Below are positions 383 through 3,772 of a stretch of DNA of 59,417 nt, in pieces (the first letter of the stretch is position 1; every line of letters starts with the position of its first letter). The translations under genes were made by a program, and so were the position numbers. The notes beneath the pieces were generated by a model. That model saw nothing but the letters and a program-made list of their open reading frames with translations, made no database searches and was not told where the DNA came from. Origin of the DNA: a candidate division WOR-3 bacterium (GTDB lineage Bacteria; Hydrothermota; Hydrothermia; LBFQ01); assembly GCA_027002825.1 (NCBI GenBank), contig JALWZG010000053.1:613-60029 (forward strand), written 5' to 3'.

Positions 383-624
383 TCCACTATTAGTGGTGCT
401 ATGTAGTGATGCAACCGCCTTCCACCGTTCCGGCTGGCGGCGGGGTGGAGGGTGGGGGCTATAACGGGAAGTTATAATACTGTTATCGTGGAATTAAGGA
501 GGATGGGATCCGAGGGACCACAGGCGGCCTGAAGGAGCGTAGTTGCCCGTGAATATTGAGGGTGTAAAAGTGTATCAGAACGGAGGTTATAATGCGTTTG
601 TGTAGATGTTAAGGCAGGGGGTTG

Positions 625-810
625 TTATACTTTTATACCGTCCTGCCTTAATAAGACCTCATAAATCCGACGGTATTTCCTAAACTCCTTCAGCCAGTTG
701 TAAACCGTTTGCCGGCTTACCCCAAAAATATAGGCAATTTCCTTCACAGATACTCCCCTACTCCAAAGGAGAACCGCCTTCTTTACCTTCTCCTTCACCT
801 TCATCTGCAC
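625..810 (-). CDS. small helix-turn-helix protein (transposase/resolvase-type HTH)
   Basis: 61-aa ORF with the HTH motif VSVKEIAYIFGVSRQTVYNWLKEF. Its first 53 nt overlap the 3' end of the upstream ORF in another frame. Confidence 0.5.
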   Translation of the reverse strand: MQMKVKEKVKKAVLLWSRGVSVKEIAYIFGVSRQTVYNWLKEFRKYRRIYEVLLRQDGIKV

Positions 811-1522
811 CCTCCGGGTTTACCTTAACCACCTTCACCCCCTCTATATCGGGAACGGTTATATACTCCTCCAAACGCTTGGGTATCACGAGATAAAGCT
901 CATAGCGGTCTACTTCAAATCCCAGCCCCTTGATATACTCTACGGTGTTCCGAAACTTCTCCCTTATATCCTCTTCTCCGCCTTCAAACACAAGACCCTT
1001 GGCCTCCACTATGCGGGCTACGGTCTGGCCGTTCTCCTCGTAGATATAAACGACGTCGGCGTACTTCTGTGAGGTGTCAAGGTCGGGCTTTAAGACGGCC
1101 CTAAGGCCCTTCGGCTTTACCGCACTGTTGGATATGAGGTGTAGTTCTCTGTGCCACAGCTCGCTTCTCATTAGCCCCTTTATCTCAGCGATGTCCCTTC
1201 CTATGGTGAGCAGTATCTGGGCGATAATACGAAGGTCAGGATTCTCAATACGGTCTATGAGTTTCTCAACTTCCGGATTCACGTTGGGATTATAAGGCTG
1301 TAAGTCTTCGGGGTTGGACTTTGTGGCGTCGGCGATTGCGAGGAAGGTAATGCGTTTTGCTCCGGCACGTCTTAAGGCTCGGATTACCTTTCTCATAGTG
1401 CGGCCGGTGTGGATTACGTCGTCTATCACGAGGATGCGGAGGCCACGCACAACCGGTTCGGCGTACTCGTTGCCGTTCCGCAGGACTGAGCCATAAGCTA
1501 TGCCAAGGGCGTCGGCTACCAT
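758..1522 (-). CDS. two-domain protein: minimal phosphoribosyltransferase PRPP-loop region plus C-terminal PD-(D/E)xK-like (restriction-endonuclease-fold) region
   Basis: LRILVIDDVIHTGRTMRKVIRALRRAG is a type-I PRTase PRPP-binding loop, and only ~37 aa precede it. The C-terminal YADVVYIY..(13 aa)..RIVEAKG fits a D...ExK nuclease signature (inference). Confidence 0.55.
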   Translation of the reverse strand: MVADALGIAYGSVLRNGNEYAEPVVRGLRILVIDDVIHTGRTMRKVIRALRRAGAKRITFLAIADATKSNPEDLQPYNPNVNPEVEKLIDRIENPDLRIIAQILLTIGRDIAEIKGLMRSELWHRELHLISNSAVKPKGLRAVLKPDLDTSQKYADVVYIYEENGQTVARIVEAKGLVFEGGEEDIREKFRNTVEYIKGLGFEVDRYELYLVIPKRLEEYITVPDIEGVKVVKVNPEGADEGEGEGKEGGSPLE

Positions 1523-1539
1523 GCGGACTATAATCCTTA

Positions 1540-2001
1540 TTACGGCCGGGAGATGTGCTTTTCTACTATGCGGATGATCTTCTCAACCTTCTCAAAGCCG
1601 TCGTCTATGGCCTTTTTACTTTGGAGTTCCCTGTAGTAGGCACCGAGATGGAGGAGTTTATAGACCTCGTTGAAGAGTACCTTCAGCACATCCCTGTCCT
1701 TTCCTATCCTCATCACCCGTCCCAAATAGGAGTCGTACATATCCACCTTCTTGAGCCTGCGGTTCAGATCCTTCGCCGACAGCAATCCTTCCCACAAAAA
1801 TAGGGCCTTCAAGGCCTCAAGGGTGGCCAGATAGGCCTTGCCAGCGGCTCCGGAGATGTACTTTATGTCGGCGTATATGCCCGTCCTCCTGTCTATGCCG
1901 GCGAGTTTAATCTCCTCTCTGGCGTTCTGTAGGTACCTTTTGGCCAGTTCCAACCTCTCCTGTGGGGTTGTGGGTACCTTTAAAAGTGGCCATCTCCTCA
2001 T
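1540..2001 (-). CDS. helical ~150-aa protein of unknown function, copy A (resembles DUF5618 from memory, unverified)
   Basis: Strongly similar over its full length to the ORF at 2003-2455. Both end in the shared EKVEKIIRIVEKHISRP and contain the LHLGAYYRELQ motif. Confidence 0.7.
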   Translation of the reverse strand: MRRWPLLKVPTTPQERLELAKRYLQNAREEIKLAGIDRRTGIYADIKYISGAAGKAYLATLEALKALFLWEGLLSAKDLNRRLKKVDMYDSYLGRVMRIGKDRDVLKVLFNEVYKLLHLGAYYRELQSKKAIDDGFEKVEKIIRIVEKHISRP

Positions 2002-2002
2002 T

Positions 2003-2455
2003 CTACGGCCGGGAGATGTGCTTCTCCACGATGCGGATCATCTTCTCAACCTTCTCAAAACCGCTGTCTATGGCCTTTTTGTCCTGCAGCTCCCTGTAGT
2101 ATCCGCCTATGTGAAGCAGGCTATAAACGTTGTCAAAGAGACGTATAAGCACGTCCCTGTCCTTCCCTATCCTCATCACCCTCTTGAGAAGGGAGTCGTA
2201 CATCTCCACACGCTTCAGCTTACTCTTCACCTCCCTCTCATCCACCAACCCCTCCCACAGGAAGAGAGCCTTCAGGGCTTCAAGGGCCGCTAAGTAGGCC
2301 GTTCCGGAGGCTTCGGATACGTACTTCAGATCAACGTACTCTCCTACCCTCCTATCAACCCCGGCCTTTTTCAGGGTCTCTCTAGCGTTTTGCAGATACC
2401 TCTTGGCCAGTTGCAAACGCTCCTGCGGAGTTGTAGGCGTCCTTACAACTGCCAT
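2003..2455 (-). CDS. helical ~150-aa protein of unknown function, copy B (paralog of 1540-2001)
   Basis: Starts 1 nt upstream of copy A. Contains the same TPQERLxLAKRYLQNARE ... LH(L/I)GxYYRELQ ... EKVEKMIRIVEKHISRP architecture. Confidence 0.7.
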   Translation of the reverse strand: MAVVRTPTTPQERLQLAKRYLQNARETLKKAGVDRRVGEYVDLKYVSEASGTAYLAALEALKALFLWEGLVDEREVKSKLKRVEMYDSLLKRVMRIGKDRDVLIRLFDNVYSLLHIGGYYRELQDKKAIDSGFEKVEKMIRIVEKHISRP

Positions 2456-2464
2456 CTCCTCATT

Positions 2465-3649
2465 CTAAGGCCGGGATATGTGCCTCTCCACTATGCGGAT
2501 TATCCTCTCAACCTTCTCAAAGCCGCTGTCTACGGCCTTTTTGTCCAACAACCTCCTGTAGTACCCCCCAAGGTGGAGGATGTTATAAACGTCCCTCAAA
2601 AGCTTCAGCAACCTGCCCCTGTCCTTACCGAGAGGCAAACCCTTCAGGGCCTGTCTCAACCTCCCTATCTCCCTCGTCCTCTTCTCCATCAGAAGCGCCT
2701 TCCTTAAAGTTGTTAAACCCCAATTACCATCCTCCCACCACTTTACGCTGTACTTGTGCTTTTTGTAATCCCTCTCGCTCTCAGGTTTCCTGAAGACGAA
2801 CACGTGTTCGTGCGCTATGAGATAAAACTCATAATCCCTTCTCCTCCACCTCTCACGGGTAGCCTTCATGTTCCACTGGAGCTTTATTATATCCTCCTTC
2901 AAGATGAAGCCCACGTCCAAAAATATCTCCATCACCCTGAAGGCGAGGGGAACGTAGTGTTTGTGCTTTCTGGTATCACCTATGAGTATGGCGCAAACTT
3001 TGCCGGGTTTCAGCACCCTGTAAGACTCCTCCGCCACCTTCCTCATCTCTCGGAGATACTTATCAAAGGGCAAAGAGGACAGATCCCCGCCGAGCTCTTT
3101 ACGCCTCGTGTACGAGATTATGCTGGCGTAGGGTGGGTGCGTGGCTATGAGGTCAACGCTCCCATCCTCAACCTTGTCAAGGTTTCTGGCATCCCCCCAG
3201 TAGGTCTTTATCACGGGTTCTCTGTAATCCTTTGAAGATGAGCTGTACGAGAAGTTCAAGCGATCCCGTGCCACCATAACCGCGTCAAGGTTTATATCCA
3301 CACCTATCGCGTTCCTCTCCAAGAGCTTCGCCTCTACCAGTGTAGTCCCGCTACCCATCATCTGGTCAAGAACCCAGTCCCCCTTTTTGGTGTACTTCAG
3401 GATGAGATTCCTCGGAACATAAGGGGACCAGTTCCCCCTGTAGTTCCCTTTATGCGTTGCCCAACTGCCGCGCTCTGGAAAACTCCATACGGTTGTGCGC
3501 TCCGGCGTGTAGTCCTCAGGACCGTAGGATTTTATATTCCAACTCCCCTGAAGTTTTACACGGGAGTTTCCCACAACCACTTCCGCATGCTCTTTAATGA
3601 ACTCCAAATAGTCCTCATGGGTGATCTCCTGCATCTTTCTGTAGTTCAC
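2465..3649 (-). CDS. DNA N6-adenine/N4-cytosine methyltransferase (PF01555-like with motif I before the DPPY-type motif), C-terminally fused to the second half of the copy A/B module
   Basis: Motifs seen: WSFPERGSWATHKGNYRGNWSPYVPRNLI, VLDQMMGSGTTLVEA (AdoMet motif I) and DLIATHPPYASI (motif IV). The last ~60 aa, GKDRGRLLKLLRDVYNILHLGGYYRRLLDKKAVDSGFEKVERIIRIVERHISRP, are homologous to copies A and B. The GTG start lies 15 nt after tRNA-Ala. Confidence 0.8.
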   Translation of the reverse strand: MNYRKMQEITHEDYLEFIKEHAEVVVGNSRVKLQGSWNIKSYGPEDYTPERTTVWSFPERGSWATHKGNYRGNWSPYVPRNLILKYTKKGDWVLDQMMGSGTTLVEAKLLERNAIGVDINLDAVMVARDRLNFSYSSSSKDYREPVIKTYWGDARNLDKVEDGSVDLIATHPPYASIISYTRRKELGGDLSSLPFDKYLREMRKVAEESYRVLKPGKVCAILIGDTRKHKHYVPLAFRVMEIFLDVGFILKEDIIKLQWNMKATRERWRRRDYEFYLIAHEHVFVFRKPESERDYKKHKYSVKWWEDGNWGLTTLRKALLMEKRTREIGRLRQALKGLPLGKDRGRLLKLLRDVYNILHLGGYYRRLLDKKAVDSGFEKVERIIRIVERHISRP

Positions 3650-3664
3650 CCAAATTTCCCTTAA

Positions 3665-3737
3665 TGGAGCGGAGGGGAGTCGAACCCCCGACCCCCTGGT
3701 TGCAAACCAGGTGCTCTCCCACCTGAGCTACCGCCCC
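3665..3737 (-). tRNA. tRNA-Ala (anticodon UGC)
   Basis: The reverse complement reads GGGGCGGTAGCTCAG...CCTGGTTTGCAACCAGG...GGTTCGACTCCCCTCCGCTCCA. A cloverleaf fits, a G3:U70 pair is present, and no CCA is encoded. Confidence 0.92.
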
Positions 3738-3772
3738 AAAGGGTTAAAATTCTAAAGCCGGAAGGCGGACGG

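Follow-up and report, generated by a model that had tools for sequence, protein, structure and literature searches.

Here we describe a locus in a 59,417-nucleotide stretch of DNA (the window) from a candidate division WOR-3 bacterium (contig JALWZG010000053.1), in which a methyltransferase gene with a C-terminal tail is followed, on the minus strand, by two tandem genes of the protein family DUF5618, called copies B and A. The tail resembles both copies. The locus is very probably a decayed type II restriction-modification cassette that has become fused to an array of DUF5618 paralogues, with the tail as the scar of that fusion. Its features, all on the minus strand, are listed in the order of transcription.

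3664..3738, minus strand: tRNA-Ala(TGC), directly upstream of the methyltransferase, at the left edge of an accessory segment of slightly lower GC content.
3649-2465, minus strand: methyltransferase open reading frame (ORF), 394 amino acids (aa).
2726..3649, minus strand: methyltransferase core, beta-class N6/N4, residues 1-308, ending in KWWEDG (PF01555, PADLOC).
2700..2730, minus strand: scar of a DpnII-family endonuclease gene, 31 nt (N-terminal consensus and frame translations).
2465..2699, minus strand: C', the 3' remnant of a DUF5618 paralogue of type C (BLASTP, nucleotide alignment, hidden Markov model (HMM)).
2003..2455, minus strand: copy B, an intact DUF5618 gene, 150 aa (PF18498 and PaREP1 matches, AlphaFold2, Foldseek).
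1540..2001, minus strand: copy A, a DUF5618 gene, 153 aa (PF18498), with a frameshift after the canonical start.

The proteins of copies A and B are 72% identical, in line with a sequence-only reading of this DNA that had called the ORFs at 1540-2001 and 2003-2455 close paralogues, and the C-terminal ~75 aa of the methyltransferase ORF align with the C-terminal halves of both. All three ORFs share the C terminus IRIVE(K/R)HISRP. The direct DNA repeats are spaced 463/462 nt apart and include a 142-nt segment present three times at 75-85% identity. That reading had also pointed to high DNA similarity at the 3' ends, to a 16-mer at 1581, 2044 and 2506, and to the recurrence of TAG AAT GAGGAG ATGGC at both junctions; all are present, the 16-mer being identical in all three copies. 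For the 18-mer ATCTCCCGGCCGTAGAAT, three occurrences (≤3 mismatches) compare with a chance expectation of 0.07. The 462-nt period was missed by Tandem Repeats Finder, since identity between the copies is only 73-75%, and the array is detectable only by a search for direct repeats or by comparison at the protein level. The same arrangement is found, with 100% identity over 8147 nt, in an ENA metagenome scaffold (scaffold_7831, L001). A 389-aa form of the methyltransferase fusion, with a later start, is on record only in one ENA scaffold, identical to the window; an exact look-up of the 394-aa ORF was empty because gene callers pick the later start.

The homology of the tail to copies A and B, which the sequence-only reading had proposed, stands as an alignment with their C-terminal halves, but a third paralogue type, C, is nearer to the tail than either of them is. 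In BLASTP comparisons with collected family members it is 85-89% identical to type C over 74 aa, against 69% over 55 aa for copy B, and its DNA identity to C genes, counted from the alignment, is about 89-92% (full-length type-C references: P0221; L038; L002 1165-1614; L010 5542-5991). C' corresponds to approximately codons 59-149 of C and supplies residues 318-394 of the methyltransferase ORF together with its stop codon (TAG, 2467-2465). From 2699 to the stop, the tail DNA is close to the C genes except for one 30-nt in-frame gap, flanked in intact C genes by the 10-nt direct repeat GGAGAAGAGG, of which the surviving copy lies at 2687-2678. The tail matches positions 76-148 of the DUF5618 family HMM and, as a partial domain, positions 62-121 of the Pfam DUF5618 profile (27.6 bits, under the cut-off of 33). 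It keeps only the insert helix and helices 3 and 4; helices 1 and 2 are missing, with the conserved helix-2 glutamate, and there is a 10-aa internal deletion. In the AlphaFold2 model of the fusion, pLDDT falls below 50 in the linker at residues 301-312, and the helical tail (three helices) is of moderate confidence. YYRR in the tail, where other members have YYRE, is a native type-C feature and not decay, and in L010 a C gene stands directly upstream of a B-like gene, the order seen in the window. Three codon changes in the tail are specific to the window, two of them synonymous and the third replacing the nearly invariant Asp of GKDRD with Gly; as these changes are so few, the fusion is recent. 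On these alignments, the tail is best read not as a copy of A or B but as the leftover half of a third array gene, C, and is likely a functionally neutral scar.

The methyltransferase core matches PF01555 (E 8.8e-30) and the PADLOC model MTase_II PDLC03376 (264 bits, residues 40-288), and keeps all residues that are invariant among 52 homologues. Its motif IV (consensus (D/S)PP(Y/F)) reads THPPY, as in 52/52 aligned homologues, and His in place of Asp or Ser is a property of the subfamily. The best 120 protein homologues (68-80% identity, 287-328 aa) end at ..KWW(E/N)(D/N)G.., and 80 metagenome methyltransferase loci show the same tail-less ending. Neither a DUF5618-type tail nor a DUF5618 gene within 4 kb was found for any of these 120 homologues and 80 loci, ~200 relatives in all, and at 57 DUF5618 loci this methyltransferase was never the neighbour. 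A conserved system pairing restriction-modification with HEPN proteins was rejected on these counts (0/80 methyltransferase loci, 0/57 DUF5618 loci); the association of methyltransferase and DUF5618 is unique to this genome.

What follows the methyltransferase elsewhere is a DpnII-family endonuclease gene (PF04556), found in 35 of the 62 loci with enough downstream sequence and fragmented in several of the surveyed loci. In L058 (WOR-3) and L063 the endonuclease start overlaps the methyltransferase stop by 14 nt. The N-terminal consensus of the endonuclease in 31 loci is MVKFKELGFxxFEEYxxxFF, with LGFNNF in L077. At the expected position, the window keeps ATG GTA (2730-2725) and codons 7-14, LGFNNFKE (2723-2700), separated by an 11-nt deletion between 2724 and 2723; in the homologues, these 11 nt carry the methyltransferase stop. 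The order in the window, TGGTGGGAGG ATGGTAA TTGGGGTTTAACAACTTTAAGGAA GGCGCTTCTG..., is thus start, 11-nt gap, codons 7-14 and junction to C. The methyltransferase frame reads the scar as a linker, NWGLTTLRK (residues 309-317). A tblastn search with the L058 endonuclease found no other DpnII-like sequence in the 59-kb window. The methyltransferase belongs to a restriction-modification family of the DpnII type, and its endonuclease has been lost.

The anatomy of the locus, its homologies, the deletions and the family-wide habit of forming arrays can be read directly from the comparisons given here and below. The order of events is one that we infer, as follows. The ancestral minus-strand order would have been tRNA-Ala, methyltransferase, overlapping DpnII-family endonuclease, C, B and A. 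One deletion would have removed 11 nt in the overlap of methyltransferase and endonuclease, taking the methyltransferase stop with it. A second would have run from endonuclease codon ~15 to C codon ~59, removing the endonuclease gene and ~58 codons of C, and a third, of 30 nt, would have arisen by slippage between the 10-nt direct repeats inside C. The methyltransferase ORF now passes through nine endonuclease codons out of frame, enters C in the latter's own frame and ends at the C stop, giving an orphan methyltransferase with a hitch-hiking tail of 86 residues.

Copies A and B both exceed the Pfam gathering cut-off for DUF5618 (PF18498, 33 bits), with 71.4 bits (E 9.9e-20) and 80.0 bits (E 2.2e-22), respectively; for PaREP1/PaREP8 (PF05942, cut-off 24.4 bits), copy B scores 28.2 bits and copy A 19.5 bits. 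The Pfam HEPN model gives E 0.018, under its cut-off. The AlphaFold2 model of copy B (pLDDT 91) consists of four long helices, the second and third separated by a short insert of two helices (residues 10-29, 43-68, (73-79, 83-92), 98-119 and 126-147). Its best Foldseek match is 3mfn (E 5e-5, TM 0.73/0.86, root mean squared deviation 2.4), to which A and B are also related by sequence (phmmer E 1.9e-8). The second-best match is the PaREP1-type HEPN protein 2q00 (TM 0.61-0.65/0.74-0.79), and weak matches to the HepT/HEPN toxins 6m6u, 7ae6 and 5yep come after it. The suggestion made with the sequence-only reading, that the module might be DUF5618 or a HEPN-like four-helix bundle, is thus borne out by Pfam above its cut-off and by the agreement of AlphaFold2 and Foldseek; the module is a Pfam family of unknown function and not a well-characterised domain.

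Residues invariant across 34 family sequences include His115 at the end of helix 3, Glu59 (helix 2), Arg121, Lys126 and Lys127. In none of these 34 sequences does an Arg stand 4-6 residues upstream of His115, as the Rx4-6H motif at the end of helix 3 would need. The C-terminal RIVEKH was considered as a HEPN Rx4H active site and rejected: it belongs to helix 4 and varies within the family (R to K/Q/E, H to Y). In PaREP1/8 proteins, the histidine is kept, the arginine is lost and other basic residues are conserved, and their genes occur in operons of tandem repeats (Anantharaman et al. 2013, PMC3710099); His115 without the arginine is the same pattern. Pfam finds no nucleoside triphosphate (NTP)-transferase domain in the five ORFs between 625 and 3649, and no minimal nucleotidyltransferase (MNT) gene is listed beside the arrays in L002, L004 and L006. 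As they have neither a canonical Rx4-6H motif nor an MNT partner, A and B are not HepT-type toxins. A and B are DUF5618 proteins, a PaREP1-like branch of the HEPN four-helix superfamily, and they probably belong with the PaREP1-type HEPN proteins. DUF5618 proteins would accordingly be HEPN-type conflict proteins that target RNA or bind nucleotides.

Synonymous divergence between A and B stays near 0.6 throughout the gene apart from its final 15 codons, and the ratio of non-synonymous to synonymous divergence (pN/pS) is ~0.3. A and B are old, long-diverged paralogues rather than recent duplicates, and both are under purifying selection. Copy A carries one extra base after the canonical ATGG, a +1 frameshift that confirms the shift of the N-terminal frame already noticed in the letters alone, and the canonical frame stops after 28 codons. 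Its sole in-frame ATG, at 2001, shares bases with the stop of B (TAGAATG) and is not preceded by a Shine-Dalgarno sequence (window 1996-2004). Copy A may be expressed by coupling, or may be becoming a pseudogene. Another gene caller gives a 137-aa version of it.

The DUF5618 family is small (348 representatives at E≤1e-3 among 1.84 billion), and nearly all representatives are stand-alone proteins of 130-150 aa. Hot-spring genome bins of candidate division WOR-3 / Hydrothermia supply nearly all close relatives, in many cases with numerous loci in one genome. An HMM scan of the 57 DUF5618 loci found arrays of 2-5 genes, all full length, diverged from one another and pointing the same way, with spacers of 9-12 nt (five genes in L006, at least five in L015, and three each in L002, L013 and L016), and truncated or frameshifted copies are frequent beside them. 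Head-to-tail arrays are the normal state of the family; homologous loci are not confined to a single copy, and arrays of 2-5 are the rule. Such arrays expand when a gene is duplicated in tandem together with its 9-12-nt spacer, the two forming one unit. Integron gene cassettes were considered and rejected, as spacers of 1-12 nt leave no room for attC (~60-140 nt); no integrase was found in the listed neighbourhoods. The few longer DUF5618 proteins include ORFs with two DUF5618 domains (two array members), a peptidase S9 N-terminal fragment joined to a 5'-truncated DUF5618, and a type IX secretion C-terminal domain joined to DUF5618; in L028 (5992-7536), a change of stop TAA to AAA leads to read-through into a downstream secreted-protein gene. 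These chimeras (proteins P0390, P0385 and P0261 and locus L028) are evidently accidents.

Several further observations concern the surroundings and the variation of the arrays. Uma2-family (PD-(D/E)xK) genes form tandem arrays of their own, of 2-3 genes, directly upstream of DUF5618 arrays in five WOR-3 loci (coordinates include L019 3741-5522; L010 3628-5531; L026 492-1663; L002 116-691 and 2115-2690). A putative secreted protein of 325 aa is encoded downstream of DUF5618 arrays in six loci. Within ELQxKKAIDxGF, the residues at alignment positions 125 and 131 covary across paralogues as S..D, D..S or N..A. The 3' variant LLDKKA.DSGFEKVER is common to the tail in the window (2530-2560) and the L038 C gene, and the other 3' variant, LQSKKAIDDGFEKVEK, is found in the L010 and L002 C genes. 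Patterns of this kind suggest mosaic 3' ends produced by gene conversion between paralogues.

The boundary between neighbouring copies is itself a recurrent element. Its occurrences in and beyond the window are as follows.

2456..2490, minus strand: junction C'/B, ..VERHISRP, stop TAG, AAT, GAGGAG, ATG; contains TGGAGA-17 nt-TAGAAT.
1996..2028, minus strand: junction B/A, TGGAGA-17-TAGAAT, GAGGAG, ATGGCC.
1523..1554, minus strand: degenerate third junction after copy A, ATCTCCCGGCCGTAATAAGG, abutting the start of the neighbouring phosphoribosyltransferase (PRTase)-like ORF.
18-nt junction sites: L002 680-697 and 2679-2696; L010 5517-5534; L019 5511-5528; window 2479-2462 and 2017-2000.
Further junction sites: L016 2830; L028 5977; L033, L034 and L046 5977.

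Nearly all DUF5618 genes examined have ATCTCCCGGCCGTAGAAT (or, in another subgroup, ..CCTTAAAAT) 6-12 nt upstream of their ATG, and the junction motif stands ahead of DUF5618 genes at more than 25 sites, solitary genes included. The 18 or more nt in front of the genes are identical to the family's 3' end with its stop and AAT. First and solitary copies are preceded by 18-35 nt of the family '3' end' without a preceding gene, with a left boundary that varies. A and B differ less in their last 15 codons (synonymous divergence 0.29) than elsewhere (0.6). Uma2 genes end in ..KEVFISRP, stop TAG, AAT only where a DUF5618 gene follows, and otherwise in ..KEVFK with stop TGA; it is therefore commonplace for an upstream ORF to end inside the element, and the methyltransferase tail is an extended case of this. 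By its recurrence, then, the last ~45 nt of the gene, with stop and AAT, can be regarded as a conserved DNA element that precedes family members. At both junctions, TGGAGA-17 nt-TAGAAT, a sigma-70-like -35/-10-like pair, stands 6 nt before the ATG. The sequence-only reading had described a unit with its own stop, -10-like TAGAAT and start, and the junction does recur in the arrays of other genomes. From this positional conservation, the element probably carries the expression signals of the next gene, which would explain why upstream ORFs of whatever kind tend to end inside it; it may be a promoter or a recombination hot spot.

A number of points weigh against this account of the locus. No genome was found with the full order of methyltransferase, endonuclease, C, B and A, so that the ancestral state is a reconstruction. 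The tail lies in C's own frame, a 1 in 3 chance, and only one of its unique changes is non-synonymous. Compared with intact orthologues, its pN/pS (0.18-0.29) is not raised above that among the orthologues themselves (0.10-0.24), although, with only three lineage-specific codon changes, pN/pS has no power either way on selection in the tail. Promoter-like matches in the region are not in excess (3, against 2.7 in shuffles). A literature search for DUF5618 returned no papers.

It was on the relation between tail and free genes that the sequence-only reading went furthest, proposing that a genuine regulatory or interaction domain of the enzyme had been duplicated downstream as free genes that compete with or regulate it. 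The tail is in frame and helical, keeps the family-invariant LHxGGYYR..KKA.D.GF and has a pN/pS that is not elevated, and HEPN domains are often linked to restriction-modification systems (PMC3710099). Those linked HEPN domains, however, are fused to nucleases and helicases and not to methylases (PMC3710099), and the ~200 methyltransferase relatives have no tail. The tail is also nearest to a different paralogue type that is full length elsewhere, is joined to the core by an out-of-frame endonuclease remnant, and lacks helices 1 and 2, the helix-2 glutamate and 10 further residues. The split between A and B (pS 0.6) long predates the fusion, with its three unique tail codon changes. The direction is reversed: a pre-existing C-B-A array lost the front of C. 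We regard this proposal as largely refuted and give it only a very small chance of being right.

A second kind of explanation accepts the history of the chimera and asks whether it has since been put to use, the half-domain pairing with free A or B so as to tether or gate HEPN activity on the surviving methyltransferase, for which PrrC held by EcoprrI would be the analogue. The half-domain does keep helix 4 and helix 3 with its conserved histidine, HEPN proteins generally act as dimers (PMC3710099), and the frame of C is preserved in the fusion. Against this stand a single and recent occurrence, the change of the nearly invariant Asp of GKDRD to Gly, and the lack of any conserved association between the two families, and such co-option is in our judgement highly unlikely. 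If true, it would be a newly born nuclease-modification coupling of the PrrC/EcoprrI kind, caught at its origin. An assembly artefact, in which the repeat family mis-joined the end of a methyltransferase contig to the middle of a DUF5618 gene, would draw on the fact that DUF5618 genes often lie at contig ends in WOR-3 bins and so break assemblies. Yet across the junctions the 60-kb source contig agrees with ENA scaffold_7831 over 8147 nt without a difference, the endonuclease/C junction shares ≤2-3 nt, far too little for a k-mer mis-join, and the three separate deletion scars, one of them with flanking direct repeats, look biological; we hold this to be, by a little, the least credible of the three. 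A decayed cassette fused to a pre-existing array thus remains the preferred reading.

As set out here, the array shares with PaREP1/8 (PMC3710099) small proteins that stand alone and fold into four helices, the second and third separated by an insert, a conserved histidine at the end of helix 3 without the Rx4-6H arginine, and operons of tandem paralogues with lineage-specific expansions in thermophiles. It differs in its hosts, which are bacterial (WOR-3 / Hydrothermia) and not crenarchaeal, in that only copy B reaches the PaREP1 Pfam cut-off, in the absence here of an MNT or DUF1626 partner, and in the conserved junction element that overlaps the 3' end of each gene. Sequence and predicted fold clearly place A and B in one family with 3mfn, the crystal structure of Dfer_2879 (Dyadobacter fermentans) on which DUF5618 was founded, but 3mfn lacks the YYRE..KKAID.GF that is invariant in the WOR-3 subfamily, which is moreover multi-copy and arrayed. 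With HepT/MntA, the likeness is limited to the superfamily fold (weak Foldseek matches): A and B have neither Rx4-6H nor an adjacent nucleotidyltransferase gene and are arrayed paralogues, not two-gene modules.

It is well known that in restriction-modification systems the endonuclease may decay while the methyltransferase is kept, and other surveyed loci show this as well; the methyltransferase resembles the orphans that such loss leaves behind. As in DpnII-like cassettes, it is a beta-class enzyme of family PF01555, with a stop that normally overlaps the beginning of a PF04556 endonuclease gene; unlike them, the locus has also lost the methyltransferase stop, which joined the ORF to a fragment of an unrelated downstream gene. 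Going by the DpnII family name only, the methyltransferase would be specific for GATC. Among tetranucleotides in the window, CTAG (0.04 of the Markov expectation), TCGA (0.11) and GATC (0.71) were compared; the avoidance of TCGA suggests pressure from a TaqI-like restriction system. The methyltransferase family is found in Archaea (Methanospirare, Alkanophagales, Thermoprotei, Nitrososphaeria) and in Bacteria (WOR-3, Hippea, Dictyoglomus, Hydrogenobacter, Caldisericota), from hot environments, and identities of 68-80% across both domains point to frequent horizontal transfer among thermophiles.

Downstream of copy A lies a further pair of overlapping ORFs.

1522-758, minus strand: PRTase-like ORF.
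810-625, minus strand: small helix-turn-helix (HTH) ORF.

The PRTase-like ORF (254 aa) overlaps the HTH ORF (61 aa; the pair spans 625-1522 on the minus strand) and has only 8 homologues in 5.8 billion proteins, one of them a 431-aa form. In another WOR-3 genome (L144, 8001-8976), a 280-aa PRTase-like form has the same HTH partner and adjoins a DUF6884 gene. Truncation of the ORF by the array was considered and rejected, as the 280-aa form in L144 starts six codons earlier without any array; in the window only the first few codons are affected. There are weak PADLOC matches to PRTases of the ShosT/PsyrT type, and the pair may serve in defence or as a toxin module. GC content is 0.46-0.53 between the HTH ORF and the methyltransferase (600-3650) and 0.54-0.62 in the flanks; this segment adjoins tRNA-Ala, as would fit an accessory island.

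Free regulators iterated from the tail of an enzyme would have had no precedent; the evidence leads instead to a familiar loss of an endonuclease and a run-on ORF, and what is combined here, a paralogue array, an orphan methyltransferase and a chimeric ORF, is of known kinds. The case, resolved to the nucleotide, illustrates how defence islands come to contain chimeric ORFs and seemingly new domain architectures, and cautions against reading function into fusions found in a single genome. For the family, a junction element that repeatedly supplies the last codons and stop of the upstream gene offers testable gene-array biology, and the loci surveyed document DUF5618 as a bacterial counterpart of the archaeal PaREP1 expansions, arrayed in thermophilic WOR-3.

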